A stretch of 25,101 bases of DNA from the IMG/VR virus record IMGVR_UViG_3300009165_000006; one strand, given 5' to 3'. Source of the DNA: a virus. This document shows, piece after piece, positions 1 to 22,198 of this stretch. How positions within the stretch are numbered: position 1 is the stretch's first letter; each line of letters begins with the position of its first letter. Both the position numbers and the translations under genes were made by a program. The notes under the pieces are model-generated. The model saw nothing but the letters and a program-made list of their open reading frames with translations. It had not been told where the DNA came from and searched no databases.

Positions 1-304
1 GGGCGTCCCTCGTAGCCTGTGTTTACCTACTAAGAGGAAGGATTGGCTCATTCCAGGGAACAGAGATCGTCAGCTTACTTTGACCTAGCAGGGCCGGTTC
101 GGCCTAGCTGAGGCATGGTATCTACATCGGATAGAATCTACATCTATAGGATCTACATCTGGTGTCTATCGGTTCACCTGTTACGACCCACCGAAGTAGG
201 CGGCCTCAGGTTTCTTACCTGGCTGACCCCAGAAGGAAGGCGCTAAGCCTATTCGGGCGCTGGGCAAGAAGAACTTACGACCCCCGGAGGATACCCCAGG
301 ACGG

Positions 305-544
305 TCAAGTGGTCAAGGATTTAGATGTGGCTAACTTAGAAGCCACTGATCTACCTAGCTCGGTTGGGACCAAAGTGATTCGGTAGCTACCCAAGGTCTC
401 ACTTTTGGACACATACTCAAGCTCGAGGAGCTTGAGAGCAGGCTTGTATTCCGGGAAACAACTCCAAGCTCGATATCCATCGTCAGTAACCTTGATGACT
501 TCCTGAAGGACCCGGGCTTGGGCTGGGGATAGCTTCTTGCTCAT
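305..544 (-). CDS. Family B small wHTH DNA-binding protein (LexA N-terminal-like domain only), copy 3
   Basis: 79-aa ORF. Its N-terminal half is a paralog of ORF 2861..3079 (KLSPAQARVLQEVIKVT vs KLTPTQVKTLQEIIKIT), and nt 337-385 are near-identical to 2869-2917. Pattern LTxxQxxxLxxI...G.P.....PEY...LKLLELGYV...G...I.LV resembles the LexA N-terminal winged helix. Preceded by the conserved promoter at 545-580. Confidence 0.6.
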   Translation of the reverse strand: MSKKLSPAQARVLQEVIKVTDDGYRAWSCFPEYKPALKLLELEYVSKSETLGSYRITLVPTELGRSVASKLATSKSLTT

Positions 545-580
545 GCACTCTATTACGCCTGGGCTCTAAAGAGATCAACC
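545..580 (-). promoter_or_regulatory. sigma70-like leaderless promoter: TTGATC(573-578 rc)-17-TAATAG(550-555 rc)-5-ATG
   Basis: Member of the conserved TTGAG-N17-GCGTAATAG-N5-ATG family seen in front of many minus-strand genes. Confidence 0.55.
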
Positions 581-717
581 TTTGCTGGGCGGTTCTTTGA
601 AGGAGAGCACGAGGACCTTCGCCGTTGGAACCTCATGGGGGTCGATCGATAATCGACCCCCATTGGAGGTCAAATCCTTGATCTCGTCGAACAGATCTTG
701 TTGTTTCTCGCTGAGCT

Positions 718-894
718 TCATTCGTTGACGCTCACGTGTAGTAGAAAGTCCCCTAGGGCCAGGACTGCCGTTTTCAGAGCTTGTCTCGCATGGGGTCCTA
801 ACAGGACCCCATGATTCGCCTGAACCTCATTGAGCATGTTGTTTGCCCAACGGGCAGCATGAGCCATAACTTCTAGGCGGGTTTCGGTAGACAT
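718..894 (-). CDS. hypothetical small protein (58 aa, MSTETRLEVMAHAARWANNMLNEVQANHGVLLGPHARQALKTAVLALGDFLLHVSVNE)
   Basis: Not in the supplied ORF track (below 60 aa). Found because the conserved promoter motif (TTGAGC-17-TAATAG-6-ATG, 895-930) sits directly upstream of an ATG at 892-894. Open frame runs to TGA at 718-720. Confidence 0.45.
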   Translation of the reverse strand: MSTETRLEVMAHAARWANNMLNEVQANHGVLLGPHARQALKTAVLALGDFLLHVSVNE

Positions 895-974
895 GCTCTC
901 TATTACGCGCGAGGGAGCCCGGGCTCAACCTCTCTTTCGAGGAAATCCCACCCCCCCTTCGAGACCAAGTTCCT

Positions 975-1160
975 CTAAGAGCGCTTTGGAGAACTTGGAG
1001 AGCTTGGTGGCCGTTCAGTCTCGGGTTCCTCGGGCCCCTGGTCTTTGAGGTAGATCTTGGCCGCCTCTACCTCGAGCGGGTCAAAAGATGATGTGTCCTG
1101 CTTGTGAAGCACGAGATGGGCTATTTGCCGGATTCTGTGACTGAATTCGTCCATACCCAC
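975..1160 (-). CDS. hypothetical protein (61 aa, Pro/Ser-rich C-terminus)
   Basis: ORF only. No clean promoter motif. Low-complexity tail. Confidence 0.25.
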   Translation of the reverse strand: MGMDEFSHRIRQIAHLVLHKQDTSSFDPLEVEAAKIYLKDQGPEEPETERPPSSPSSPKRS

Positions 1161-1216
1161 CCCGAATAGCCCAGTTCTAAGTCAATGTCCAAATTTTGAA
1201 CTCGAAAGTGTGTGGC

Positions 1217-1915
1217 TTACTCAGCTAACGCCCACTTGAGTGCCACTTCACAACCCGCTGGCATTTTGGCGGATGCTAGCCCGCCTCGGCTTTGTCGGAA
1301 ACTGTTCCGAGCTTCCCATCGAACCTCTCGGGACGCTAGCCCTTGGTCGACCGACCACGCTCGGTTACAGCACTCGAGCACTTCCACGTAGTAGGTTGAT
1401 GCTAGGGCCGCCGCAAGTCGACGTTGGTCTGCCGCTTGGGCTCGAAGAACCACGGCTCCCCTTCGGGCTCGACCGCCACTACGCCCTGAAGCTCGCGCCC
1501 GGGCCTGCCCCTCCAGCTCGATGGCAGCCTGGATCGCAGCTCGTAAGCGAGTCTCAATCTCCAGCTTACGAGCCGAATGAAGCTCGGCGTACGCCCTCTC
1601 GATCTTCCGATCTTGAAACAGTCGAGCCAAATGGGCCCGCCTCTTCTCCCGCCACTTCTCCAGGTCCGCGACGTAAGTGATGTCGCTGTCCCCACCGGGA
1701 TAGTACGACTCTTCCGCGCGCGCAGTAGACCCTGCCTGCAGGGTCACCTCGCAGGACTTCCAGCGGCAGAACCCGTTGTCTCCGGACTCCACAGAAGGCC
1801 CCCGTGTGGCCCCGCCGGTCAACGTCAACCGGACGATCCCAATCCCCGACCCAAAGTAACTGTAACACTGGCAGTATAGTGTTAGTTTCTTCCCTGGACG
1901 TACATACTGTATCAT
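1217..1915 (-). CDS. hypothetical protein, N-terminal CxC...CxxxxC cluster and Ala/Arg-rich coiled-coil C-terminal half
   Basis: 232-aa ORF. Upstream TTGAGT(1959-1964 rc)-18-TAATAG(1935-1940 rc), then a 19-nt leader containing AGGAG (1924-1928 rc) 9 nt before the ATG, so this is a leadered mRNA with a Shine-Dalgarno sequence. The GC-rich opposite-strand ORFs look like translation artefacts. Confidence 0.6.
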   Translation of the reverse strand: MIQYVRPGKKLTLYCQCYSYFGSGIGIVRLTLTGGATRGPSVESGDNGFCRWKSCEVTLQAGSTARAEESYYPGGDSDITYVADLEKWREKRRAHLARLFQDRKIERAYAELHSARKLEIETRLRAAIQAAIELEGQARARASGRSGGRARRGAVVLRAQAADQRRLAAALASTYYVEVLECCNRAWSVDQGLASREVRWEARNSFRQSRGGLASAKMPAGCEVALKWALAE

Positions 1916-2138
1916 GGTTTCTTCTCCTGCACGTCTATTACGCTTGAGCCTATCCTGAACTCAATTGGGAAAGATTACCTGTAATAGTAGAGGGATACTG
2001 AACCATCGTACCGTACCGACGCGTCCAACCAGGGGAGTCCCCCTAAGCGCCACTTGATGGCGTCGCATACGGTCCTAATACGCTTACTCCCCGTCTCATG
2101 AGTGGGGGTCCCGACCAACCAACGAATCAGTTTTTCTT

Positions 2139-2579
2139 TCATGGCTTCTCTTCGAACAGTGTACGATCATAACCAACTTGCATCACCGTACCATCCTGAT
2201 GGTGCAGGTTGTAGGCGTGCCCCATCTCGTGGAGTACTGTGTAATACAAGTCAAACTCCCACGTGTCTCTATCCCGACGGTCCGTAATCCGGATCTCGTG
2301 CCACTCATACAACCCCTTGTGGTGGGTGTAGATGGCGTGATCCTTCCCCGGCAATACCCCTACCGGCACGATGCGAATCTTGTTGGCGCCCTCTTCCCGG
2401 TTCATCTGGGCGCACCAAGCACCACTCGTCGCTTCACACCAAGCGTCCGAGGCCTCCTGCATGATCGCAATCTCTTCCTCCGTAGCGTCCCCTGTCACCT
2501 GGAAGTGGTCCTCTAAAGGGGCACATCCACTCAGGTCGACTAGGAGAACTGCCGCTACGGTGATGAGGTATCGTGCCAT
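2139..2579 (-). CDS. small secreted lipoprotein zinc metalloprotease (metzincin/snapalysin-like, HExxHxxxxxH)
   Basis: N-terminal signal peptide with lipobox LSGC. HEMGHAYNLHH motif in a roughly 125-aa mature protein. Conserved leaderless promoter at 2580-2614. Confidence 0.6.
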   Translation of the reverse strand: MARYLITVAAVLLVDLSGCAPLEDHFQVTGDATEEEIAIMQEASDAWCEATSGAWCAQMNREEGANKIRIVPVGVLPGKDHAIYTHHKGLYEWHEIRITDRRDRDTWEFDLYYTVLHEMGHAYNLHHQDGTVMQVGYDRTLFEEKP

Positions 2580-2610
2580 GCCATCCTATTACGCACGACC
2601 CCCAAGAACC

Positions 2611-2844
2611 TCAACCGGTTTCGTCGACCCAGTTCCGCCCAGTCGCCGGGTTCCAAGCCTTGAATCCTGCCTTGGTGATCTCGAGAGCCAACGCCTTCGA
2701 GTCAGCATCGTCCCCTCGTAGGGTGGGAACGTACCCATCGAGCATCTTGGCAGCTAACTCCGCGAACGACCTAAAGGCCGTGGCCGAAGCCGTTAGCTGG
2801 TTGAGTTTGTCGATCTGGGCAGCAACTTGAACTTCGCTTTTCAT
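2611..2844 (-). CDS. Family A hypothetical protein (77 aa), copy 1
   Basis: Paralog of 3110..3340 (shared C-terminus ...FAELAAKMLDGYVPTLRGDDADSKALAL.ITKAGFKAWNPATGRNWVDETG identical over about 45 aa). GAGGGGG Shine-Dalgarno about 10 nt upstream, 16 nt after the family B gene. Confidence 0.6.
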   Translation of the reverse strand: MKSEVQVAAQIDKLNQLTASATAFRSFAELAAKMLDGYVPTLRGDDADSKALALEITKAGFKAWNPATGRNWVDETG

Positions 2845-2860
2845 GTAGAAAATCCCCCTC

Positions 2861-3079
2861 TTACAAGCTCGAAGCCACTGATCGACCTAGCTCGGTCGGA
2901 ACCAAGATGATTAGAGACCCACCTAAACTTTTAGTCTTCGACACGTACCCGAGCTCGAGCAGCTTAAGAGCCGGCTTGTATTCCGGGACACAACTCCAAG
3001 GAAACCCCACACCCGTAATCTTGATGATCTCTTGGAGAGTTTTAACCTGGGTGGGGGTTAGCTTTTTCGTCTTGGGCAT
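2861..3079 (-). CDS. Family B small wHTH DNA-binding protein (LexA N-terminal-like), copy 1
   Basis: 72-aa ORF. Promoter TTGAGG-17-TAATAA-6-ATG at 3080-3113. Paralog of 305..544. Confidence 0.65.
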   Translation of the reverse strand: MPKTKKLTPTQVKTLQEIIKITGVGFPWSCVPEYKPALKLLELGYVSKTKSLGGSLIILVPTELGRSVASSL

Positions 3080-3109
3080 GCCTCTTATTACGCGCGAGCT
3101 TCGAGAACC

Positions 3110-3340
3110 TCAACCGGTTTCGTCGACCCAATTCCGTCCCGTTGCCGGGTTCCAAGCCTTGAATCCCGCCCTGGTGATCCCTAGGGCGAGGGCCTTTGAG
3201 TCCGCATCGTCTCCACGTAGAGTGGGAACGTACCCATCAAGCATGCGAGCTGCTAGCTCAGCAAACGACTTGAATGCCGTCACCTTGGCAGTCAGTTCGT
3301 TGAGCGAGGCAAGCATGTCAGCCGTATGTTTGAGGGTCAT
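3110..3340 (-). CDS. Family A hypothetical protein (76 aa), copy 2
   Basis: Paralog of 2611..2844. Promoter TTGAGT-17-TAATAC-6-ATG at 3341-3375. The tandem P-A-P-B-A unit at 2580-3375 is about 85% identical at the nucleotide level between repeats. Confidence 0.65.
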   Translation of the reverse strand: MTLKHTADMLASLNELTAKVTAFKSFAELAARMLDGYVPTLRGDDADSKALALGITRAGFKAWNPATGRNWVDETG

Positions 3341-3349
3341 GCCCTAGTA

Positions 3350-3559
3350 TTACGTGCCAGTCTTGCCAAACTCAACCAAACTTCGACGGCGTTCCTGCCT
3401 TTCTACGAGAATCCTATCCCCACACGTGGCAGCCCGGATGCTGTCACATGTGAGTTTTGTATGGAACTCACATGTGACAGCATCCGGTGGAACGTCTTTC
3501 ACCAAACCGAGCCTTACGGCTCTCAAAAAGTGTGCGACTTTCCCCTCAACTGATGACAT
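3350..3559 (-). CDS. hypothetical small protein (69 aa), or a small RNA; contains a 23-bp perfect palindrome
   Basis: Well-formed promoter TTGAGA(3588-3593 rc)-17-TACTAC(3565-3570 rc)-5-ATG. The ORF reads through the 3434-3487 hairpin and into the next gene's promoter, so protein-coding status is uncertain. Confidence 0.3.
   Translation of the reverse strand: MSSVEGKVAHFLRAVRLGLVKDVPPDAVTCEFHTKLTCDSIRAATCGDRILVERQERRRSLVEFGKTGT
3434..3487. repeat. perfect 23-bp inverted repeat (CCGGATGCTGTCACATGTGAGTT / AACTCACATGTGACAGCATCCGG) with an 8-nt loop
   Basis: Read directly: arms 3434-3456 and 3465-3487 are exact reverse complements. Confidence 0.9.
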
Positions 3560-3606
3560 GAGTCGTAGTATGTACCAAAAAGCGGACTCTCAACCAGAAA
3601 GTATGT

Positions 3607-3674
3607 AACTACACGTAGTTTTATGATTGGCTCATTACTATTGCTACGAACATGCTCTAAAACTACGTGTAGGC
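3607..3674. promoter_or_regulatory. conserved bipartite element, copy 1: AACTACACGTAG-16-TTACTATTG-21-ACGTGTAGGC (outer arms form a 14-bp inverted repeat)
   Basis: Same three blocks with identical 16/21-nt spacing recur at 8473-8540. Spacer sequences differ. Confidence 0.6.
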
Positions 3675-3976
3675 AATCAAGAGGCTCGAGCTTATAAGCT
3701 CGAACAAGGGACTAGCTTACATGTAGTTACTCAATACGCTGGTAACTATAGGAATGAGCCAAGAGCTTACCTACCTGTAAGCAATCTACTAACTATCCAG
3801 GCCACCCCCATTGTTCTGGTCATAAACGAGAGTGACCCTGGCTCCCCACCACCCTCGAGTCTTGATGCACTGCTCGTAACCTTACCGGCAACCTATCTTA
3901 CAGGTCAGCGTCAAACTCAAAATCCGGAACTGGACCAAGGCATTCCCCCCTACGGCGCATTAACCCTCCCCCAGGG

Positions 3977-4591
3977 TTAGCACAACGACCTCATTATCCG
4001 CTGGTACCGAGTAAGTACGGGAGCCCTTTCTTGTGGGGAATTCCTTAGAAGCCAATCTTGGCAATCAGTAAGTTGAGCTCTTCTCTCTTTAGCACTTTTA
4101 GCACTAGAAGTGGCTGCTCGAGCAGCCCAAGTCGTAGCAGCCCTAGCAGCAGCCTGAGCATTAGCCAAAGTAGTCATAACAGAAGCAGCCCAAGCAGCAG
4201 CCTGAGCAACCCGAGCAGCTCTATGAGCAGTCCTCCAAGCAGGCATTGAAGGAGCATCCTCAGACAGAACCTCCCAAGCAGCCTTAGCAGCCCTTTCTAG
4301 TTCTTCCTTTGAGACCGCTTCCCCGTTAACAAATCGGTCACACAGATCTAAAGCTCGAAGGGTATCAGGATGGAACCAACCTGTCTTCGTACAGCCTCGG
4401 CGTGCAACCCGAGCCACTACATAGACCATTCCCCTCCGCCCAAGAATCTCTTCATGTAGGAGTACCCCTACTTTAGCATTAGACGGAATCGATGCTTCAA
4501 ACAACTCCATCACTCCCATCGGGAGTAGTTCGTCTGGGATAAGGTCGGAAGGCTCCCAACTCTCAAGGAGTTCTTTCGTAATGGTGATCAT
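3977..4591 (-). CDS. Family D hypothetical protein (204 aa, Ala-rich C-terminal half), copy 1
   Basis: Paralog of 7826..8380 (shared blocks LIP.E.LPM...FEA.I.S..K.G.LL.EEILG.RGMVYV.AR.ARR.CT.TGW.HP.TLRALDLCDR, ...KERRAQL.DC..WL). Promoter TTGACT(4624-4629 rc)-17-GATAAT(4601-4606 rc)-9-ATG. Confidence 0.65.
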   Translation of the reverse strand: MITITKELLESWEPSDLIPDELLPMGVMELFEASIPSNAKVGVLLHEEILGRRGMVYVVARVARRGCTKTGWFHPDTLRALDLCDRFVNGEAVSKEELERAAKAAWEVLSEDAPSMPAWRTAHRAARVAQAAAWAASVMTTLANAQAAARAATTWAARAATSSAKSAKERRAQLTDCQDWLLRNSPQERAPVLTRYQRIMRSLC

Positions 4592-4647
4592 ACCACCCTC
4601 ATTATCCGTGGATCACCTCCAAAAGTCAACTGGTGTACTTTTGCCCC

Positions 4648-4923
4648 ATGAAAGAGAAGCCTGAACCCGAAAGGAAAGGCTGGGTACCGGTCACTGAATG
4701 CCATCCCCCAGTCGATGAACCACTACTCGTCTACCATCGTGTAGATCGATACCCGAGCGGCGAAGTGCATAGCTGGGACGCACTCCTCGTTGCAAAGTAC
4801 GATCGCACGTCTCATTGGTTAGTGGAATCGGATGCTGGCTATTGGGTACGCTTTTCCAAGTCCGAGCTAGTGACCCATTGGATGTATTTGCCCGAGCCAC
4901 CCGGCTCTTTGAGGTCCCCATAA
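4648..4923 (+). CDS. hypothetical protein (about 91 aa, Trp-rich)
   Basis: ORF 4633..4923, with the start more plausibly at ATG 4648 (MKEKPEP). TACTTT-6-ATG geometry upstream. Divergent from family D gene. Opposite-strand ORFs look less protein-like. Weak. Confidence 0.35.
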   Translation: MKEKPEPERKGWVPVTECHPPVDEPLLVYHRVDRYPSGEVHSWDALLVAKYDRTSHWLVESDAGYWVRFSKSELVTHWMYLPEPPGSLRSP

Positions 4924-5078
4924 AAGAAGACCGAGCCAATCCTCCGCACACAAGGAGAACTGGCCCGGCCTAGCCCGTACGTGGAAGATGATTGGAGAAC
5001 CACGCTCAGGCCAAACGGGAAAGTACTCCACCCCCACCCCGGTAGTCAACCTTTTTACAGCAGGCCGAAGTGGTTCGA

Positions 5079-5447
5079 TTACCCCTGCGAGTCTCCCACC
5101 TCTTTGATGGCTCTCTCCATCTGAGTGGCCAACTGACGTAGTTGGTTGGTCGTAAACTTCCGAGCCAACGCCTGGAGCCTCTCTAAGGCTACTACGTATA
5201 AGATATGAGCCATCTCTTGAGCATCCTGGGCCTCATAGAGCGCCACCATCTCAGGGGTGGGTGGGAACCATATGTGCCCGTCAGCCCAACGAGTTTTCTT
5301 CGGGATTCGTACCCCACTGGTAAGAATGACCATTGTCTTGGTTACCCGCTCAACAGTGACCTCACGCCAACTACGACCCACTTGGTGGTACCACTTCGAC
5401 CCAGCGACCGTATTTCGAACGGCTTCCTCAAGAATAGCGTTGCTCAT
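5079..5447 (-). CDS. Family C hypothetical protein (122 aa), copy 1
   Basis: Paralog of 6029..6400 and 7424..7780 (shared ...E.A..NTV.GSKWY..v...W..v.VE.VTKTT........I.K...........W.PPT). No canonical family promoter. Three ACTCAA (= TTGAGT) repeats lie upstream. Confidence 0.6.
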   Translation of the reverse strand: MSNAILEEAVRNTVAGSKWYHQVGRSWREVTVERVTKTMVILTSGVRIPKKTRWADGHIWFPPTPEMVALYEAQDAQEMAHILYVVALERLQALARKFTTNQLRQLATQMERAIKEVGDSQG

Positions 5448-5578
5448 ACCTACTACACACCACCTGTGCCCTAGTCCTGAGAGACTTTTGAGGCAGACTC
5501 AACCTCTGACTCAAAAGTCCCCCTACTCAAAAACCTCTTGCATGACGCCTTGACTACAGTACCACTAAGGCGCCCCCT

Positions 5579-6091
5579 ATGACGAGATTTCTCGTACAAT
5601 TCGAGACCGAGGACGATCAAGCCCTCATCAAGGCCCTCGTCTTCCTTCAGGAGAACGGCTTCAACCCAACCCTTCAGGCAGTCGCGGATGAACCAAAGCC
5701 CGTAGCACGTATCCCGGTAGTGGCACGCCTCGACCGGGATACGGCGTGGATGAAACTCCTCTCCGCCTTGAAGCCGAACCCCAAGAAGGTCCTCCAGTTC
5801 ATCAAGACCGGCCCCCCAAATGGTCTCTCCGCTAGGATGATCGCTGACCAGTTCAAGCAGAAACCAAACTGGTTCACCGGAGTCCTCAACGGCGGAATCC
5901 AACGTAACGTCAAGTCCGCCGGATTCCAGCTCGAAGACGTCGTTGTCATTACCCAGTATCGCGGAATGATCACCTACGCCCCCGGCCCAGAACTCAAACG
6001 CAGGGAGCTCAAAAGTCCCCTACCACCTTCACCGGCCTATGCCCCTATTGACGGTGACGAGGTCAATGAGGCTCTCCATCTGGGTGACTAG
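5579..6091 (+). CDS. hypothetical protein (170 aa), possible wHTH-like segment (VLQFIKTGPPNGLSARMIADQF)
   Basis: Protein-like composition. Its 3' end overlaps the convergent family C gene by 63 nt (antisense overlap). Confidence 0.5.
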   Translation: MTRFLVQFETEDDQALIKALVFLQENGFNPTLQAVADEPKPVARIPVVARLDRDTAWMKLLSALKPNPKKVLQFIKTGPPNGLSARMIADQFKQKPNWFTGVLNGGIQRNVKSAGFQLEDVVVITQYRGMITYAPGPELKRRELKSPLPPSPAYAPIDGDEVNEALHLGD

Positions 6092-6400
6092 TTGCCGGAG
6101 CTGGTCAGCTGTAGTCCACTGAGCAATAGCTCGAAGCTTCTCTAGAGCTGCCAGGTAAGAGGTCATCGCGTCCTTCTTCGCCATGACCTCCAGAACTAGG
6201 TCCTGAGTGGGTGGAAACCAGATCCGCCCAGCATGATCACGACAGGTTGCCTTCGAGATGCAAGTGCCCCCCAGAAGCACAACCGTAGTCTTGGTTACCT
6301 TCTTGACCTCAACCGCATGCCACTTACCATGGATGCACTGATACCACTTTGAACCAGGTACCGTATTTCGAATGGCCTCTTCGCGATCAACTGCGTTCAT
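6029..6400 (-). CDS. Family C hypothetical protein (123 aa), copy 2
   Basis: The track ORF 6029..6439 was trimmed to ATG 6398-6400. This ATG sits 5 nt after the conserved TAATAG (6406-6411 rc) with TTATGG -35 (6430-6435 rc) and aligns with the paralog N-termini (MNAVDREEAIRNTVPGSKWYQ). Confidence 0.65.
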   Translation of the reverse strand: MNAVDREEAIRNTVPGSKWYQCIHGKWHAVEVKKVTKTTVVLLGGTCISKATCRDHAGRIWFPPTQDLVLEVMAKKDAMTSYLAALEKLRAIAQWTTADQLRQLVTQMESLIDLVTVNRGIGR

Positions 6401-6583
6401 GTTCTCTATTACGCTTGCCCCCTGCGAACCCATAACCAAAATCTATAGCGTTCGCCTGTGGTACCCCCAAGAAACTAGCTTTGGCTGGGGTACTGGGAAG
6501 TCGGCCAACATCAAGTACCCCATCCGGAACCCAGTGCTTGGCTCCCCATTCTATGAAACTTAAGCTGGGTTTGGAGTCAACTT

Positions 6584-7378
6584 CTAGATCTCCATTTGCT
6601 CGGCCAAGTACTCGTAGTCGTCAAGCTTACCATTGGCACGCGAGGCCCTATTCGAGGCTTCGGACGCCCCGTTGGGTGCACCAAGCTTGGCGCGAGCTGT
6701 GACGCAATCCTCGTCGCGATGCCACTGACCACGGAGCTGCCACCGGGATTGCTCTCGTAGAGTCAACTTCCTCCAACCCTGTTCTCTAGCCCTCTGGTAG
6801 AGCTGCCTTGAAGCAAGGCGATTCGCCTCACTCAGAGTGAGTCCAATCGCCGCAGTCCCGAAGTCGCGTGCCAAATCCTCGACATCACACCACGGTAGGA
6901 AACGGTAGTAGCGCGTCCAGTGCCATGTCAGGATATCTGCGGCCCGTACCGGGTCAGACAATCGATGTGAGTAGCGAACAAAAGACTGCGACCATAGCAA
7001 TTCCTTGCCGGCGAACCGGTCACTCACCATGACCGTACAGGGAACTGTCTCATCAGCCGATACCTCAAGGCTAATTGGCCTCAAATCGCGAGCTTGCTCT
7101 TCTGGGAGCAGGCGAAATAGCATCCGAATCCGCCGAGTCCCGTCGAACTTACCAGTCTTGTTTGAGATCTCCAAAACCTGGCCCCATCGGCCTCGACCAG
7201 AAAAGAAATCGTCAACGACAACGACGTCAATGTCGCCCGTCGACACGCCTAGTAGCCCGGAGACTACGCCACGCATCGTACGTGACAGCCACACCACATT
7301 TTCTGTGGCCTCAAGGCTGAATTGGAAGGATGAAATCTCAACAGAACCCCGAACGATCAATTCAATTGGCTTTTTCAT
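6584..7378 (-). CDS. hypothetical protein (264 aa) with a G-x-S-x-G-D-I-D-VVVVDD acidic motif; possible nucleotide/metal-binding fold, unassigned
   Basis: Long clean ORF co-transcribed 45 nt downstream of family C copy 3 (no promoter motif between). Motif GLLGVSTGDIDVVVVDDFFSGRGRWG does not fit any family I can name with confidence. Confidence 0.6.
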   Translation of the reverse strand: MKKPIELIVRGSVEISSFQFSLEATENVVWLSRTMRGVVSGLLGVSTGDIDVVVVDDFFSGRGRWGQVLEISNKTGKFDGTRRIRMLFRLLPEEQARDLRPISLEVSADETVPCTVMVSDRFAGKELLWSQSFVRYSHRLSDPVRAADILTWHWTRYYRFLPWCDVEDLARDFGTAAIGLTLSEANRLASRQLYQRAREQGWRKLTLREQSRWQLRGQWHRDEDCVTARAKLGAPNGASEASNRASRANGKLDDYEYLAEQMEI

Positions 7379-7423
7379 GTCCCATACCCGAGGTCAATTT
7401 CTCGGGCCTCCTAGTACGAGCGG

Positions 7424-7780
7424 TCAGTGAATCTCCGACAGGTCAATGAGGCTCTCTAGCTGAGTGGCTAGCTTGAGAAGTTGAGCAGGCGTAGCACGCT
7501 GAGCTGCCTCTCGAAGCTTCTCTACGGCCGCCTCGTAAGCAACCCTGGCGACCTCAAAGTCCTCGAACTGCTTGACGATGTTCTGAGTGGGTGGATACCA
7601 AGCCCAACCATCTTGGTCACGACAGTTCCTCTTCGAGATGCGAGTCCCCCCTTCGAGGTAGATCGTAGTCTTGGTTACCCTCTCGACCAAGCCCACTACC
7701 CACTTGCTATTCACGCACTGATACCACTTCGAACCAGGAACCGTGTTCAGGATGACAGCTTCTCGTTCGACTTTGCTCAT
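7424..7780 (-). CDS. Family C hypothetical protein (118 aa), copy 3
   Basis: Promoter TTGAGT(7811-7816 rc)-18-TAATAG(7787-7792 rc)-6-ATG. Paralog alignment as above. Confidence 0.7.
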   Translation of the reverse strand: MSKVEREAVILNTVPGSKWYQCVNSKWVVGLVERVTKTTIYLEGGTRISKRNCRDQDGWAWYPPTQNIVKQFEDFEVARVAYEAAVEKLREAAQRATPAQLLKLATQLESLIDLSEIH

Positions 7781-7825
7781 GCCACCCTATTACGCATGGG
7801 CGCCTAGAGAACTCAACCAAATTCC

Positions 7826-8380
7826 TTAGGCCCGTCTCGTAAGCCACTCCCGACAATCGGCGAGTTGGGCTTTTCTCTCTTCCTTCTCACTAGGGACAGC
7901 ACTAACAGCCGTTCGAATAACTGTTAGTGCCCTAGTCCGGGCACTAGTATCAACGGCAACAGCCCAAGCAACTCGAGCAGCCCCATGAGCAGCCTCCCAA
8001 GCATCCATTGAAGGGGCATCATCAGCCATTGAAGGAGCCTCAGAAACAGCCAAAGCAGCTGCCCCTAGCGCTTTAGCTGAGATCTCTTCCCCCTCAGCGT
8101 AACGGTCGCATAGGTCGAGAGCTCGAAGGGTAGCAGGATGGTCCCAACCTGTCTCTGTGCAGGCTCGGCGCGCAGCCCTAGCCGCCACGTAGACCATCCC
8201 CCTTCCCCCAAGAATCTCTTCACGTAGGAGAAGCCCTATCTTGTTCTCAGAGGAAATCGGGGCTTCGAACACCTTCAGCGCCTCCATTGGAAGTTGTTCA
8301 CTCGGGATGAGGTTGGAAACCTCCCACCCCTCAAGAAGTCCACTCGTAAGAACGACCCCATTTCGTTCGGTTTGGCTCAT
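7826..8380 (-). CDS. Family D hypothetical protein (184 aa), copy 2
   Basis: Promoter TTGAGA(8409-8414 rc)-17-TAATAG(8386-8391 rc)-6-ATG. Paralog of 3977..4591. Confidence 0.7.
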   Translation of the reverse strand: MSQTERNGVVLTSGLLEGWEVSNLIPSEQLPMEALKVFEAPISSENKIGLLLREEILGGRGMVYVAARAARRACTETGWDHPATLRALDLCDRYAEGEEISAKALGAAALAVSEAPSMADDAPSMDAWEAAHGAARVAWAVAVDTSARTRALTVIRTAVSAVPSEKEERKAQLADCREWLTRRA

Positions 8381-8472
8381 GCCCTCTATTACGCACGAGC
8401 ACCCGAACTCTCAACTTCTTTCTACTCTATCTATGTAAGTAGAGGACTACCCCATGAGGGTACGGGTTCCTA

Positions 8473-8540
8473 CGGTTCTTACAACTACACGTAGGCAAGA
8501 ACCACGCTCGTTACTATTGATTCGAGCGCGCTCGTCACTT
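8473..8540. promoter_or_regulatory. conserved bipartite element, copy 2: AACTACACGTAG-16-TTACTATTG-21-ACGTGTAGGC
   Basis: Identical block order and spacing to 3607-3674. Internal GAGCGCGCTC palindrome in this copy. Confidence 0.6.
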
Positions 8541-8739
8541 ACGTGTAGGCTACCTTATCTTTCGTACCTACCATAGCTAATCATACCCTCGCCTACATAG
8601 GTATAGACGTATGACAAACACTACCTCATATCTTATAGGACTACCCTACCTACACTTGCGCGAAGCGCCTGTTCTGGTGTGGTTATCCGACACCTACTAC
8701 TTTCACAGTAAATCACGATGCGCCGAAGGCGCATCGTCG

Positions 8740-8940
8740 GATGTGTGTAGGAAACCTCACAACACAACTGGGGGTTGTGTAAAACACACAGTTCTGCAGG
8801 GAAACTGTGTGCTGTTTTCAAATGTGTAGTAAAAACACTGCACAAGTCAATTGCACGAAAGTGCCGTGATTTGTATAGTGTTTTGCCGTTTGTCGCGTTT
8901 ATTTGGAATTTTAGATCAGGTGGGTTTGATATTCGGGAGG
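8740..8940. other. AT-rich, A-tract and short-hairpin-rich region (candidate DNA unwinding element) in the divergent control region
   Basis: Local AT enrichment with TGTGT/ACACA repeats and small inverted repeats (e.g. ACACACAGTT..AACTGTGTG, GATGCGCC gaa GGCGCATC at about 8715-8735). Sits between the minus- and plus-strand gene blocks. Confidence 0.4.
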
Positions 8941-8944
8941 TCTG

Positions 8945-9140
8945 GTGATATACAAAACGGTCGGTCGGTGCTATACGAGCCCGTAGGCCGAGTGATATAC
9001 AAAACCGAACCAAGAACCAAAGTGATATACAAGCCCACGGGCAGGCTTCGCAGGCCAATGGGCTTGTATATCACTGACCCAAGAGCCGGGATAATTTGTA
9101 TATCACTGACCCAAGAGCCGGAAAGGAAAGTGATATACAA
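8945..9140. repeat. iteron array: 6 copies of GTGATATACAA (direct at 8945, 8992, 9022, 9130; inverted at 9065, 9096), including a 26-bp direct repeat TTGTATATCACTGACCCAAGAGCCGG x2 (9065-9090, 9096-9121)
   Basis: Read directly. Spacings of about 30-31 bp (three helical turns). Typical of plasmid/phage origin iterons, partition sites or operator arrays. Confidence 0.75.
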
Positions 9141-9175
9141 GTTCAAAGCTGCGGTGTATGACGGCTTATTCGAGC

Positions 9176-9526
9176 ATGGCCGTCAAGAACTACACGAAAA
9201 CTATACTCATTCGGGCAAGGGATGGGAAAGCACGGTCATGGGCGCTTCGCGCCAGTGAGAGTGGGAAGCGCCTATCGACTTGGATACGGGAGTCACTCAA
9301 TGAGAGGGCTGGGTACAAGCCTGATGGGTTGTCATCTGAGTCCATCTCACCTGAGCCTGAGGTGGGACCTGAACCAGTTATCGAGCCTGAAGTAGGGGAG
9401 TCAACTTCAGAGTCTGAGCGACCAGTTGACGAGGGCACTCAAGGTTCACCTGTTGGGGTTGGAGCCTCTCTCATTACGGATGACGAGATGCGGGTGATAC
9501 TTGATGACGTGTTGGGTAGGGGTTGA
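9176..9526 (+). CDS. ribbon-helix-helix (CopG/Arc/ParG-like) DNA-binding protein with acidic/Ser-Pro-Glu-rich disordered C-terminal tail
   Basis: N-terminus KTILIRARDGKARSWALRASESGKRLSTWIRESL fits the beta-strand/helix/helix RHH pattern. Start chosen at the second ATG (MAVKNY); ORF track starts at 9158. Immediately follows the iterons. Confidence 0.55.
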   Translation: MAVKNYTKTILIRARDGKARSWALRASESGKRLSTWIRESLNERAGYKPDGLSSESISPEPEVGPEPVIEPEVGESTSESERPVDEGTQGSPVGVGASLITDDEMRVILDDVLGRG

Positions 9527-15830: not shown

Positions 15831-16577
15831 ATGAAAAGTGACAACCTTGATGTTCGGATGCGACGGCTTGAGTGCTATCATGCGCTGGAAGTCTTACCTG
15901 GTGCCTATCCCATTGTTCGTGTTGATGGGCGGAGCTTCACGAAGCTGACCCGAGGAATGGAGCATCCATTCGATGTGAAGTTTCACGAGTGCATGGTGGC
16001 GACGGCGAAGGCTTTGTTGATTGAGTTAGGTGGACTCTATGCATTCACGGAGAGTGACGAAATTTCGGTTCTACTGCCTCGTGATACGGATCTATTCGGT
16101 CGCGAAGTGGAGAAGCTTGTGTCGGTCTCTGCGGGGATAGCGTCGTCGACCTTTTCGTTGGAGCTGGGCAAGCCTGGTCACTTTGACGGTCGGGTCTGGG
16201 TGGGGATCTTGGAGAACGACGTGGTCGATTACTTCCGATGGAGGCAGTCGGATGCCTTTCGCTGTTGTCTGAACTCCTGGTGTTACTGGACGTTGAGAAA
16301 GGCTGGGAAGAACGCCAAGCAGGCGACGGAGGTCCTTGAAGGTCGGAGTTTCTCGGCCAAGAACGAACTACTCTTTCAGCATGGGATCAATTTCAACAAG
16401 CTCGCTACCTGGCAAAAGCATGGTGTCGGTCTCTATTGGGAGGACTTCGAGAGGACTGGGTTCAACCCCAAGACCAAGGCACCCACGACGTGCACTCGTC
16501 GGAAGGTTTTGGTGAACCGGGATCTACCACGGGGTTTGGAGTACGTTAACCTCGTGCTACGGGTAGGTGGGTTATGA
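15831..16577 (+). CDS. Thg1-like protein (tRNA-His guanylyltransferase family; 3'-5' nucleotidyltransferase)
   Basis: Hallmark blocks PIVRVDGRSFTKLT (RxDGxxF), YAFTESDEISVLL (SDE carboxylates), FDGRVW, CYWTLRKAGKNAKQATEVLEGRSFSAKNELLFQHGINFNKL. Stand-alone transcription unit. Confidence 0.75.
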   Translation: MKSDNLDVRMRRLECYHALEVLPGAYPIVRVDGRSFTKLTRGMEHPFDVKFHECMVATAKALLIELGGLYAFTESDEISVLLPRDTDLFGREVEKLVSVSAGIASSTFSLELGKPGHFDGRVWVGILENDVVDYFRWRQSDAFRCCLNSWCYWTLRKAGKNAKQATEVLEGRSFSAKNELLFQHGINFNKLATWQKHGVGLYWEDFERTGFNPKTKAPTTCTRRKVLVNRDLPRGLEYVNLVLRVGGL

Positions 16578-17944: not shown

Positions 17945-18304
17945 TTAGCGAGCCTTCTTCCGAAGGGCTTCGAGGGCTTGCTTGGCGACGTTGAGTTCGG
18001 TTTCCACGTCACTCTCCGAATCGACGTCATGCTCACTCGCAGCGAAGCAAGCGTGCTCGATTCTGAGTGCTATCTCGCGCAACATCTCGCATGGGAGATC
18101 CAACCCCCTCCCAAGCTTCCGGATTGCTCCGATGGTAAGCCAATTCACGAACTCGGGCACCGTCCTGTAGTGGTTGGGGAGGGTACATGCAGACCCAACG
18201 AATTCGCTGGCAACCACGGCGTAGGGCTCCAAACCTACGCAACGAAATGCCTCGGCCAATGTGGTTCGAACAGCTTCGTCAATCTTCTCTGCTGGGTCGT
18301 ACAT
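17945..18304 (-). CDS. hypothetical protein (119 aa, acidic C-terminus)
   Basis: Promoter TTGAGT(18333-18338 rc)-17-TAGTAC(18310-18315 rc)-5-ATG. Confidence 0.6.
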   Translation of the reverse strand: MYDPAEKIDEAVRTTLAEAFRCVGLEPYAVVASEFVGSACTLPNHYRTVPEFVNWLTIGAIRKLGRGLDLPCEMLREIALRIEHACFAASEHDVDSESDVETELNVAKQALEALRKKAR

Positions 18305-18469
18305 GCTAAGTACTACGCACGATGGGGTGAGAACTCAACAACAAAAAAGTGGTATTGCCAGTGCAACCTGAGTATTAGTTTTTGGGTTTGGGGCCGTTTC
18401 AACCCCAGGTGGAGAAGCCTCGAAGGGGTTTGGGTGGTACTGGTTTTGCACCTTGTAGGGGGCTTGGAC

Positions 18470-18802
18470 TCAACGTTTCTTGGCCTTGGGGTGGGTGCAA
18501 GTAGGTGTGTGACCGTCGACCTCCTTAGCGCGGCAGAAGTAGCAGGTTCTGCCTTCGAAGATCCCTATCGTGGACCACTCGGGGGGAGTCCGACGGATCC
18601 TTGCGTCCTGGAAGTACTGTTCGGTTTTCCAAACAGGCGAGTTTCCGTTCCAAGAGATGAGCGCTTTACCCTCTTCAAGATTCACCTCGAGGACTTGGAT
18701 CTTCCAGACCCTCATTACAGACATGGTGGTATTTCCAGCCCTCTCCTTGTGGCAGTCGTAGAGAACATCCCCAGTCTTCAGGCTTTTGATTGCAATTGAC
18801 AT
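18470..18802 (-). CDS. hypothetical protein (110 aa) with C-terminal CYFC...H.PTCTH Cys/His cluster
   Basis: Promoter TTGAGG(18832-18837 rc)-18-TATAAT(18808-18813 rc)-5-ATG, which is a consensus -10. Confidence 0.6.
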   Translation of the reverse strand: MSIAIKSLKTGDVLYDCHKERAGNTTMSVMRVWKIQVLEVNLEEGKALISWNGNSPVWKTEQYFQDARIRRTPPEWSTIGIFEGRTCYFCRAKEVDGHTPTCTHPKAKKR

Positions 18803-18911
18803 GTTCTATTATACGTTCGAAGGTAGGGGAACCTCAACAGCTCCCTGTCGATTTCGATCTCTTCCAGGAAGCTGTTGAAATGTTGCAATAGAGTGCGAGT
18901 AGTTTAAGGTC

Positions 18912-19598
18912 TCACCGGAGAGGCTTGGCATAGTAGTGCCAAGCGTGGTTCGAGTGGTTCATGAAGTCAGCTTCCTTCACAGCATCCTCATAGGGCTTGG
19001 GATCAGATGCGATGAAGCGTGGGTTCCCCTTGTGTCCGATGGGCTCGCAGAAGACCCCGTAGAGGCCTTCTGGTCGATTCCCTACCATTAGGGTCCAATT
19101 GGGATCGGGGGTTGGTGGTTGCGGGTTCACGGCCTCGGTGATGGCTTGAATGACACGCTCATCCTCAGCTTCGCGGATGCTCTGCTTTAGGTAGCCTTTT
19201 TCAAACTCTTTGACCTTGGGTGGGTCCACGGTCTCGTTCTTGTGACGATCCTTACCAGTAAGCAAAGGATCGTTCTCGGTGATGGCTGCATAGACCTTTT
19301 CGGCCGCCACGAGAGGAGGTATGCGACCATCTTTGACCCTCATGAAGTAGGTTCGGAGTACGTCCTTGATGACCCCCCCTTGAGAGAACGGATAGGGCTC
19401 TAGTCGCTTGGCCATATCGAAGGCGTATTGGGCGAGGTACCCATTCGTGTAGGATACCTCGATGGCTATGGACTCCTGAACCAGCTCCTCAACAACCCCT
19501 GGCGTTAGGTGATCTCGCATGAGATCGTAGAGAAAACTCGTAAGCCGGCTTCGAATATTGACACTACCACTTCGTTCACGCAGGTCTTTGTTGGACAT
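18912..19598 (-). CDS. hypothetical protein (228 aa)
   Basis: Clean ORF. No family-type promoter. No motif recognised. Confidence 0.55.
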   Translation of the reverse strand: MSNKDLRERSGSVNIRSRLTSFLYDLMRDHLTPGVVEELVQESIAIEVSYTNGYLAQYAFDMAKRLEPYPFSQGGVIKDVLRTYFMRVKDGRIPPLVAAEKVYAAITENDPLLTGKDRHKNETVDPPKVKEFEKGYLKQSIREAEDERVIQAITEAVNPQPPTPDPNWTLMVGNRPEGLYGVFCEPIGHKGNPRFIASDPKPYEDAVKEADFMNHSNHAWHYYAKPLR

Positions 19599-19669
19599 CG
19601 GAGTGGTAGTTACACCGGGGAGGGACCCGAGGATTCAAAAACTCAACTCCCGGGGTATCGACTTGGCAT

Positions 19670-20560: not shown

Positions 20561-20715
20561 GGATGAGTTTTTGGTAAACTATTGATTGGTCTTGGCAGTT
20601 GATGACTGACCCAATAGTTCGACAGGTGGTGAGCAGGTATCTGAGGGTTCGAGCAGTTGACTTCAAACTTACAAAGTTGATCAAGGCCGCTAATTATTCC
20701 GGTGTATGTAATTAG

Positions 20716-22143
20716 ATGAAGAAGAGTCGGTTCTTCATGCTGCACCCCGAGTGTAACCCAGGGAAACTAGCCTCCCTTGAAGCCCTCCATGTCGAATACG
20801 TCTCTTACGTTCGGATCTGCGTCCAGACGATGCTTGAAGCTCGTAGGCTGACTTTACCTCGTTCCAAGAAGCAAGAGTTCTTTCCACGAGCTGAGAAGCT
20901 CACATCTCAGATTGAGAAGAACGCCCGAGACCACGCTATTCAGATCGTGAGTACTTGAGCTAAATCAGTCTACGTCCGGAAGCTCAAGACCCACATTCGA
21001 TTGGCTTTCAAGAGGGGTGAAATCACCGAGGACTTCCGAAAGCAACTCTACACAGTAGAGAAGTATCTGGTTCATGAGCCAAGGGACACTGTCTCCCAAG
21101 AAGCTATCGATCTGTATTGGACTTGGCTCTCAGACCCAGAAGTAGTGGGAAATTTCCCAAGCGTGTCCAATCGGATTCCAATGAGGATGTCGGAAAACAC
21201 TTGCTCATTGGAAGATCCAGAAGAAACTGTCCACGCTGATTTTTGGCTCAAGATCTCAACCTTGGTTTCGCGTAAGCTTGCCTGGTTACCATTGGTTGGT
21301 AACCCTTATGTGAGGAAAGCTTCCGATGTTTCCAAGGGAATCCATGCGAGGAAAGACCGAAAGGGCCGTTGGCGTTTTGAAGCGGTTGATATCAAGGAGT
21401 GGCTCGTTCTGGAAGCTGAGCCAGAGTTACCTCGAGTAGGAGTCGACGTTGGGCTGAACGTAGTAGCGGCTACTTCGAGTGGACACACGTTTGGGGCTGA
21501 CCTTCAACCAAAGTTCAACCAGCTCTACAACAAGGTCAGGGCGGTTCGCTCGAACCGCCAGAGACAGAATCTTAAGGACAACTCACCCAGGCTTGACCGC
21601 CTAGAGTCCAAGCTTTCTGGGCTTACTAAGAGTATCACAGGACGAGTATCAAATGAGCTTCTTCTAGCTTATCCAGAATCGGTCTTCGTTCTTGAAGACC
21701 TTGATCTCTCTGGATGTCGAGGTCAGAAACGTTTTTGTTATCGGGCTTTAGCTCACGCTCTTGAGTCAAAAGCCCCGACGGAAGTTGTCAATCCGGCCTA
21801 TTCGTCTCAGACATGCCCGTCATGCGGGCATGTCTCCAGACTTAACAGGTCTGGAACCAGTTTCGTCTGCCGCCAGTGCGGCAGACGTTCACATGCTGAT
21901 GTGGTGGGAGGGATCAATCTGCTCAGACGTTCTGAGAGCAAACAGATTGGTCTCGATGATCATCCGTCGGAAGTGAAGGAAGTGCTTGTGAGGCTATACT
22001 GGAATCGAGGTAATCTCGGTCGGGAGTGTCCACAGGACTTCTTGAATAAGTTCGCGCCATTATCGTATGGCCGCAGGCTTACTACCAGAGCATCGCCCCG
22101 CAAGGGGCAGGCTGGCACAGCCTCTAATCAGGTAGCTGCTTGA
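20716..22143 (+). pseudogene. tnpB: TnpB / IS605-IS1341 OrfB-like RNA-guided RuvC nuclease homolog; reading frame interrupted by a single in-frame TGA (20956-20958) and carrying a roughly 70-aa C-terminal extension
   Basis: N-terminal TnpB-like start (MKKSRFFMLHPE...) and ORF 21001..22143 are in the same frame, separated only by the TGA. Downstream RuvC-I GVDVGLN, RuvC-II VFVLEDLDL, zinc ribbon CPSCGH...CRQCG and RuvC-III HADVVGGINLL are all intact. No TnpA gene nearby. Confidence 0.75.
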
Positions 22144-22166
22144 GCTTAGTAAGTTTGAGCAACTTC

Positions 22167-22198
22167 TTGAGTACGGTCTTATGCATACCTCATAATGT
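22167..22198 (+). promoter_or_regulatory. leaderless promoter TTGAGT-17-TCATAA-3-ATG for gene 22199
   Basis: Read directly. Begins only 24 nt after the tnpB stop. Confidence 0.5.

Follow-up and report, generated by a model that had tools for sequence, protein, structure and literature searches.

Bacterial genes translated without a leader are recognised in silico by a TA-led signal about 12 nucleotides (nt) before the start codon, an accepted mark of such genes that in Actinobacteria and Deinococcus-Thermus takes the form TANNNT (Zheng et al. 2011, PMC3160421). A comparable arrangement recurs in a 25,101-nt stretch of viral DNA (IMG/VR record IMGVR_UViG_3300009165_000006; the whole stretch is called the window here), where a two-block cassette stands directly before the ATG of small minus-strand genes, and this cassette is probably a lineage-specific bipartite promoter of the sigma-70 family that would start transcription at the A of the ATG and so produce leaderless messenger RNAs (mRNAs). 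As in the genes surveyed in PMC3160421, the start codon is ATG, the −10 TA is found 11-12 nt ahead of it, no space is left for a Shine-Dalgarno (SD) sequence and the promoter doubles as the determinant of the translation start. Unlike them, the cassette has G or C as the last base of the hexamer, a strong and near-invariant −35 and additional conserved CTCGYGCG and ATC sequences, and in contrast to their loose genome-wide consensus it exists as more than 100 near-identical phage copies.

Among phages, most middle and late mRNAs of the Thermus phage phiYS40 were shown experimentally to be leaderless, as summarised in PMC3594737. The likeness is that of a large phage in which a class of genes is leaderless from its own promoter consensus, here deduced from sequence, and the difference is that the consensus is another one and that the cassette genes look early and not late; no sign of initiation-factor manipulation was seen in the window phage. 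P23-45 gp39, also from a Thermus phage, and T4 AsiA bring about a temporal switch between −10/−35 and extended −10 promoters (PMC4124052), and the lineage described here likewise has two promoter classes in one phage, class I (the cassette) needing a −35 and class II having only a −10 extended upstream. The extension is however G-Y-G directly abutting TA and not TGn, and no gp39- or AsiA-like factor was identified. The early promoter of AR9, AAATATATATTAT-N6-G, is read by a virion multisubunit RNA polymerase, as are promoters of phiKZ (PMC5312081), and these share with the cassette a conserved block set 6 nt from the start and many copies in a large phage genome with little deviation tolerated. 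In contrast to the two blocks and GC-rich variable spacer of the cassette, the promoters of AR9 and phiKZ each consist of one AT-rich block and have no −35, the leaders of AR9 measure 26-491 nt, and both phages encode split beta/beta' polymerases, none of which was found in the sampled DNA of the window and its relatives.

Extracytoplasmic function (ECF) sigma factors recognise promoters such as the B. subtilis sigma-W promoter TGAAAC-N16-CGTATA, and the cassette resembles these in the invariant CGTA of its −10, in the 16/17 nt that part the CGT from the upstream block and in very high conservation across the regulon. It differs in that the upstream block, GTTGAG(ATC) (GTTGAGATC), has no AAC motif, and no cognate sigma/anti-sigma pair was found in the phage DNA. 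In cluster K mycobacteriophages the start-associated sequence, one block of 13 bp that includes the SD, has its role in translation; the cassette is similarly a conserved short block right before many phage start codons, but is bipartite, has no SD and sits at a promoter position. Leaderless genes abutted by a −10 are well known in Actinobacteria and Deinococcus-Thermus, and phage-specific sets of promoters sharing a consensus are routine. Particular to the present case are the sequence of the consensus, the fact that more than 100 copies in a diverged, uncultivated lineage hardly depart from it, the T-less −10, the −35-less sister class and the copies in bacterial chromosomes. When the motif string was looked for in the literature, nothing but unrelated primers came up.

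The cassette in the window and in its relatives

The sequence architecture of the cassette, its statistics, its coupling to the ATG and its conservation over diverged genomes are matters of direct observation. An earlier note on the window had listed twelve minus-strand ATGs with a shared upstream layout, and when 60 nt were taken upstream of each, the order (G)TTGAG, a spacer of 17/18 nt, (GCG)TAATA(G/C), 5-6 nt and ATG was present at all twelve (Table 1). Eight copies are near perfect (ATGs 544, 894, 2579, 3079, 3340, 7780, 8380 and 18304) and read (G)GTTGAG, 15 or 16 nt, GCGTAATA(G/C/A), 5 or 6 nt with a final C, and ATG. TAATAG is set off from the ATG by 6 nt at 2579, 3340 and 7780 and by 5 nt at the other nine sites, in agreement with the note, whose claim of conservation past the hexamers is likewise borne out by the G before TTGAG, the ATC after it and the CTCGYGCG ahead of TAATA. 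The copy at ATG 1915, a promoter as strong as the near-perfect ones, is indeed the only one in the window with an SD leader. Weaker variants stand at 3559, where the −10 is altered, at 6400, where a perfect −10 goes with a degenerate −35 and the start codon is backed by paralog alignment, and at 18802, where a canonical TATAAT occupies the register of TAATAG.

A two-block weight matrix was trained on the sites of other contigs only, with all ATG information excluded. Scanned with this foreign matrix the window gave 10 distinct sites of 16-34 bits, all on the minus strand and all at starts of open reading frames (ORFs), and none of the matches lies within a gene on the opposite strand; in 40 Markov shuffles the top score had a mean of 10.6 and a maximum of 17.0 bits. 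Of the 12 starts, 10 were recovered above the shuffle null. The string CGTAATA-N6-ATG occurs 5 times in the window against 0.02 expected, and a regular-expression scan found the block on the minus strand only, save for one unrelated match on the plus strand.

The cassette is a property of a whole phage lineage and reaches beyond this window. When IMG/VR was scanned for the pattern, five large uncultivated viral contigs (36-98 kb) with almost no DNA similarity to the window each turned out to have several copies of the block, and a metagenome scan added 45 further loci. The weight matrix picks out 126 unique sites in some 400 kb of related phage DNA from metagenomes, and the distance from TTGAG to GTAATA takes two values only, so that the spacer is 17 nt at 82 sites and 18 nt at 44 when the hexamers are taken as TTGAGN and TAATAS. 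The ATG follows exactly 6 nt past GTAATA at 96 of these sites (76%) and 7 nt past it at 6, where 1.6% would be expected per position, and at 92 of the 96 ATG-registered sites the ORF that starts there runs for 40 codons or more. The base preceding the ATG is C at 77, T at 18 and A at 1 of the 96, a pyrimidine at 95; compared by class, a pyrimidine at −1 is found at 100% of class I starts versus 56-60% of other starts in the same DNA. When sites were picked solely by CGTARTA-N6-ATG, 98 were obtained; TTGA stands in 93 of them at either of two neighbouring offsets (58 and 35), and TTGAG is read in 92 of those 93. The family consensus is a-t-t-y-T-n-GTTGAGATCc ... cTCGyGCGTAATA(G/C)-n-n-g-g-C-ATG-g-c. 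Within it the TA at −10 positions 1-2 is invariant, as is the CGTA in the arrangement GTTGAG-N16/17-CGTA, and −10 position 6 is G at 43, C at 41, A at 11 and T at 1 of 96 family sites. Of the 58 starts associated with a cassette 56 are ATG, compared with 52% of the other, noisily called, starts.

Recent duplication does not lie behind the similarity of the blocks, because non-homologous genes in diverged genomes carry them and because orthologous promoters retain just the two blocks. Orthologues at about 50% protein identity keep the block (the families of window genes 544/3079 and 5447/6400/7780), and in the upstream alignment of orthologues only TTGA, GCGTAATA and ATG are invariant, the spacer and flanks having diverged. 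The relatives are large; one contig has 98.5 kb, and another, Ga0265338_10000010 (443,068 bp; pieces L056, L058, L060, L064, L068, L069 and L092), has eight cassette sites beyond the 66-kb segment that IMG/VR lists as viral; this contig is a huge phage genome or else a host chromosome with far more such promoters than one prophage would hold. Window positions 1-8500 had no megablast match among 50,697 phage records, and the 654-aa (amino acid) window protein was matched by tblastn only in an Ig-like decoration domain of the promiscuous kind. About 40 window ORFs searched by sequence against Pfam, PHROGs and PDB gave almost no match, and neither tRNAs nor Rfam families were found.

A signal acting in RNA was weighed against a promoter. 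The block could lie within polycistronic transcripts as an enhancer of translation initiation or re-initiation, comparable in role to the cluster K start-associated sequences, or as a processing site that makes 5'-AUG ends, and the fixed distance to the ATG is consistent with this, as are the absence of terminators between genes, which would place the block in read-through RNA, and the stop codons it holds (the tandem stop of TAATAG and the TGA in TTGAG), which upstream ORFs do use. Two blocks with a 17/18-nt spacer and an upstream T-rich flank are however the geometry of a promoter, and a purine-rich SD-like core is missing. Nor is there structure, folding of the block at 126 sites giving no signal against shuffles (mean z = 0.07), a value that also disposes of a structured RNA or a DNA hairpin like the phage N4 promoters. 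The 20 copies without a close ATG are informative here, since in most of them an SD-like AAGAGGTGG, AAAGGA or AGGAG precedes a start codon, the SD being separate from the block and the block 15-35 nt from the start codon; a block so displaced would not be a ribosome signal. Finally the lead cassettes (8414 and 3593) follow long non-coding regions with no gene upstream, and altogether an RNA-level role is improbable.

More improbable still is a protein-binding operator, or the boundary of a mobile gene cassette (a recombination or homing site) whose position reflects the insertion of genes. Homing nucleases of the GIY-YIG and HNH types and transposases abound at the loci, many of the downstream genes are unrelated ORFans, and in bacterial chromosomes the block stands before an integrase-like ORF, all of which would suit such a boundary. 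Against it stand the strict orientation with the downstream gene, the single-nucleotide registration with the ATG, the pyrimidine at −1, the lack of flanking repeats or target duplications and the retention of the block by orthologous genes of different genomes; moreover a separate palindromic box, CTACRYGTAG, is the better candidate for an operator.

Proposed promoter anatomy and the enzyme that may read it

As a promoter the cassette would consist of a −35 element GTTGAG(ATC) with a T-rich stretch ahead, a 17- or 18-bp spacer that is free in sequence save for the CTCGYGCG block abutting the −10, the −10 element (CTCGYG)CG-TAATA(G/C), and a discriminator of 5 or 6 nt with a final pyrimidine. 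Two blocks, a fixed-length spacer, the T-rich flank and the pyrimidine/purine step argue for the anatomy of the sigma-70 family, in which TTGAG(A) matches TTGACA at 5 of 6 positions and the spacer, 17 or 18 nt only, falls within the 17 ± 1 bp of sigma-70 promoters. Bacterial RNA polymerase prefers a pyrimidine at −1 and a purine at +1 of its start, and the pyrimidine before the ATG fits this preference. The T of the TA lies at −11 or −12 and the A of the ATG 6 or 7 nt past the −10 hexamer, and since 5-6 nt between hexamer and ATG allow a leader of 0-2 nt at most, the mRNAs would be leaderless. Transcription starting on the A of the ATG would leave no 5' untranslated region and no SD, and ribosomes would load on the 5'-terminal AUG; where a copy lies farther from its start codon, as at 1915, an SD would be provided in the short leader. 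The SD of such leadered copies indicates that the block supplies transcription, with translation left to a 5'-terminal AUG or an SD, and that the host has a canonical anti-SD. What the earlier note had called a leaderless sigma70-like promoter thus stands in silico as to its bipartite form and the want of room for a leader, and its sigma70 label needs a caveat because of the T-less −10.

Several points weigh against a promoter of this kind read by an ordinary holoenzyme. Primary sigma factors normally require the final T of the −10 hexamer, and TAATA(G/C) ends in T at only 1 of 96 sites. The 5-nt gap puts the A of the ATG 6 nt off the hexamer, at the short edge of normal start selection. Both blocks are near-invariant at more than 100 sites, tighter than is typical of host-sigma promoters, and in this resemble the targets of a dedicated factor, and the CGTA 16/17 nt from the upstream block also fits an ECF-type geometry. 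Promoter activity, start site and leaderless translation are all inferred.

Other promoter types were rejected on layout. An archaeal (haloviral) promoter would have a TATA box and a B recognition element (BRE) at −26 to −35, and here the −30 to −20 region is variable and GC-rich and variants have SD-like leaders; a T7-like promoter would be a contiguous block of about 20 bp from −17 to +3, and the cassette is bipartite with positions −5 to −2 and the spacer variable; the consensus sequences of sigma-28, sigma-32 and sigma-B do not share the layout.

As to the reader, a multisubunit RNA polymerase with a sigma-70-family factor is envisaged, with about an even chance that the factor is the primary sigma of the host. 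The genes driven by the cassette favour the host polymerase, being small ORFans in paralog families, a phage-type gene set in line with the earlier note; such families are typical of early regions and the cassette genes look early. The winged-helix fold predicted for one of the families, the copies on chromosomal contigs of bacterial MAGs (metagenome-assembled genomes) and the TATAAT at 18802 count on the same side. Possible but distinctly less likely is that the same leaderless promoter has a dedicated reader, either a sigma factor of the phage or of a mobile element (ECF-like, or like gp28/gp55) or a phage-encoded or virion RNA polymerase; any other reader takes up what remains. A dedicated reader would account for a TTGAG and a CGTAATA that are near-invariant at about 100 sites in diverged genomes, for a −10 without its final T, and for GTTGAG-N16/17-CGTA with its ECF-type spacing, as in sigma-W promoters, and the succession of block, 6 nt and start is also the geometry of giant-phage virion polymerases (PMC5312081). 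The relatives are large (98.5 kb, and 443 kb with cassettes outside the 66-kb IMG/VR part), the chromosomal copy in locus L047 adjoins a divergent Sigma70_r2 gene, and the region has no more canonical sigma-70 promoters than chance would give (5 found, 5.0 expected).

On the other side, the early-type genes would need expression before any phage factor is made, unless it is injected, the −35 has no ECF AAC motif, the bipartite form with its variable spacer is unlike the single-block promoters of phage polymerases, and one site (18802) has a canonical TATAAT. No gene for a sigma factor or RNA polymerase was detected, with the Pfam families listed for them, in the window or in 274 ORFs of the relatives, and RNA polymerase families had no match in the sampled DNA, most of the 98-kb and 443-kb contigs lying outside that sample; since the genomes of the relatives are only partly sampled, the lack of a match is weak evidence. 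The L047 sigma protein matched none of the ORFs in a phmmer search and had no relative in a scan of IMG/VR. The dedicated factor mentioned as an alternative in the earlier note is kept open by the tight TTGAG (92 of 93) and the T-less −10, and is disfavoured in that no gene for it was found.

Transcription units, control regions and a second promoter-like class

Since a leaderless ORF requires a 5' end of its own, nearly every small gene of the leftward clusters (8414 to 305 and 18837 to 17945) has its own copy of the putative promoter. That each tiny gene is also its own transcription unit, as had been proposed, is not upheld, for terminators are not enriched (7 terminator-like hairpins against 7.5 expected in shuffles) and promoters overlap upstream stop codons. 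Convincing terminator-like hairpins are limited to 4971-4928 and 3705-3684. The promoter takes up all 45 nt of the gap before 7780, P3340 lies within the 3' end of ORF 3350-3559, which terminates at the TAA of GTAATA, and the TTGAG of P3079 holds the TGA stop of ORF 3110-3340, as that of P2579 does for ORF 2611-2844. Scarce terminators and promoters overlapping upstream ORFs make nested read-through transcripts more likely than separate units. With few terminators, transcripts would run into downstream genes to give nested, co-terminal mRNAs in which the leaderless route translates the first ORF only, and the SD-led genes interspersed among the others would be translated from read-through RNA.

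Genes without a cassette are indeed interspersed (7378, 2844, 4591 and 5447). Gene 2844 has GAGGGGGA upstream in place of the cassette. Before gene 7378 (7379-7423, minus strand) there are AGGAGG, a hairpin CCCGAG-N8-CTCGGG and TATGGGAC-ATG, and folding there would bring the distant SD to a normal spacing; SD spacing shortened by a hairpin has been described for some T4 genes. The early region's only canonical sigma-70-like promoter, TTGACT-17-GATAAT (4601-4629, minus strand), stands 9 nt before ATG 4591 with GAGGGTGGT between.

The cassette-driven genes fall into four paralog families (305-544 with 2861-3079; 5079-5447, 6029-6400 and 7424-7780; 3977-4591 with 7826-8380; 2611-2844 with 3110-3340). 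The family of 72-79 aa is predicted to have a winged-helix DNA-binding fold (pLDDT 74), its model matching MarR, PadR, AspA and F-93 at TM 0.6-0.7. The family of 118-123 aa is predicted to form an SH3/Tudor-like barrel with a long helical hairpin (pLDDT 84) and has weak structural matches and a sub-threshold ProQ-C-like match in Pfam. ORF 3350-3559, behind the weakest cassette, contains a perfect 23-nt inverted repeat with an 8-nt loop (3434-3487) and may not be a normal gene.

Upstream of the lead class I promoter of each block, P8380 being that of the leftward block, palindromic boxes CTAC(R)(Y)GTAG are spaced at 54-55 nt in the two long non-coding regions (exact boxes, 3 in the window versus 0.07 expected); a CTACGTGTAG box is 13 nt upstream of P3559. 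They are candidate operator, regulator or origin sites. In the relative L022 the box forms a 25-bp tandem array (325-434), and a further copy (985-993) is 15 nt before a class I −35. Opposite P8380 there is a strongly structured, conserved non-coding element (8640-8850, plus strand; minimum free energy z = −4.8) with two GGCGC-N3-GCGCC hairpins, 6 compensatory pairs in an alignment of three sequences (with L057 150-291, minus strand, and L001 69-205, plus strand) and no match in Rfam, and the 72-aa 'ORF' 8611-8829 is probably non-coding. Farther on (8930-9140) are four direct copies of AGTGATATACAA and an inverted copy (9021-9075), iteron-like and overlapping the doubtful ORF 8851-9258.

GGTGTA heads the list of words over-represented upstream of starts that lack the block, and it defines class II. 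At 177 unique GGTGTA sites the ATG is 9 nt downstream in 24 cases and 10 nt downstream in 20, on a background of 1-4 per position, and 52 distinct ORFs of the lineage stand behind y-T-T-C-GGTGTA-N8-11-ATG. No conserved −35 element was found at class II sites. When aligned on the ATG, classes I and II have a common G-Y-G-T-A at equal distance from the start codon, and they occupy separate blocks, often as divergent back-to-back pairs (in relatives L026, L060, L085 and others). One of the two class II sites of the window stands at the left edge of what looks like a mobile unit (20716-22177, plus strand) made of an 80-aa ORF and a TnpB gene (Cas12f1-like TNB, OrfB_IS605); over 1466 nt the unit shares 85.5% identity with a related contig (L095 3364-4828), and its last 123 nt are 99% identical to another (L090 1-123).

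Table 1. Positions of the promoter copies and of other features; window coordinates, except for the last row, which refers to separately numbered loci
Feature	Position	Strand	Details
P8380, class I	8378..8414	−	TTGAGA, 17-nt spacer, GCGTAATAG, AGGGC, ATG; T of TTGAG at 8414; 31.9 bits
P7780, class I	7778..7816	−	18-nt spacer, 6 nt to ATG; T of TTGAG at 7816; 34.3 bits
P6400	6398..6435	−	perfect GCGTAATAG-AGAAC-ATG, degenerate −35 TTATGG; 9.0 bits, not above null
P3559, weak class I variant	3557..3593	−	TTGAGA, then TACTAC-GACTC-ATG; 16.3 bits
P3340, class I	3338..3375	−	ACGTAATAC, 6 nt to ATG; 29.3 bits
P3079, class I	3077..3113	−	GCGTAATAA; 31.2 bits
P2579, class I	2577..2614	−	6 nt to ATG; 30.2 bits
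P1915, class I with leader	1913..1964	−	19 nt from TAATAG to ATG, including AGGAG; 26.6 bits
P894, class I	892..928	−	26.5 bits
P544, class I	542..578	−	−35 variant TTGATC; 22.7 bits
P18304, class I	18302..18338	−	GCGTAGTAC; 28.7 bits
P18802, variant	18800..18837	−	TTGAGG, then ACG-TATAAT-AGAAC-ATG; 9.8 bits
Class II promoter	20701..20718	+	CC-GGTGTA-N9-ATG; before 80-aa ORF (ATG 20716) and TnpB unit
Class II-like	19596..19616	−	CC-GGTGTA-N12-ATG; before 228-aa gene 18912-19598 (ATG 19598)
Terminator-like hairpin	4928..4971	−	18-pair stem, then TCTTTTATGG; leftward gene block
Three CTAC(R)(Y)GTAG boxes	3609-3618, 3663-3672, 3718-3726		54-55 nt phasing, upstream of P3559
Two CTAC(R)(Y)GTAG boxes	8485-8494, 8540-8548		upstream of P8380, divergent control region
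Chromosomal cassettes and their surroundings	L047 4894-4928 and 5461-6270; L048 1335-1369; L039 7151-7190		

Chromosomal copies, host and significance

Class I copies also occur in bacterial chromosomes, on 571-kb and 820-kb contigs of a 'delta proteobacterium' MAG of 53% GC and in a Polyangiaceae MAG. The ORFs behind these copies are a conserved 'MLW' ORF of 122 aa, which in L047 is the neighbour of the divergent Sigma70_r2 gene, and a frameshifted ORF resembling a tyrosine recombinase. In a single scan of a genome collection the matches were mostly single ones due to chance, and only the copies in the Polyangiaceae and 'delta proteobacterium' MAGs looked genuine; one match in an Omnitrophota bin proved to be a phage contig of 5 kb. 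These are weak pointers to a host among Myxococcota-like bacteria, and a search of the literature on leaderless transcription in Myxococcus found nothing relevant. The window also has a gene of the Thg1-like tRNA-His guanylyltransferase family (15831-16577, plus strand), with an 80% identical copy in the relative L051; homologues are frequent in large phages such as Bacillus phage G and Prevotella megaphages, and since its protein matches many of these large phages at 32-34% identity it carries no host information.

The chromosomal copies possibly serve as a host clue, or they may be elements tuned to phage transcription. Were the reader a dedicated one, the cassette genes would form a phage-specific regulon and the chromosomal copies infection-responsive elements. 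A wider picture along these lines is conceivable, though rather doubtful, in which a clade of large and possibly huge phages (as much as 443 kb or beyond) expresses most accessory genes leaderlessly through the two T-less G-Y-G-T-A classes under an unrecognised dedicated sigma or polymerase specificity, and in which chromosomal islands (with integrase and 'MLW' genes, in Myxococcota-like MAGs) have the same promoter and are switched on by the transcription machinery of the phage.

The 45-bp signature identifies an uncultivated phage lineage in sediment, wetland and leachate metagenomes, and it fixes gene starts to the nucleotide throughout that lineage. If the start site is as proposed, this would be among the clearest layouts of one promoter for one gene forced by leaderless translation, and would suggest a host clade that initiates efficiently on leaderless mRNAs. 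The T-less −10 core common to both classes is a lead to an unusual sigma specificity or to a class switch directed by the phage, and once the reader enzyme is identified the cassette could be used as a compact expression part.

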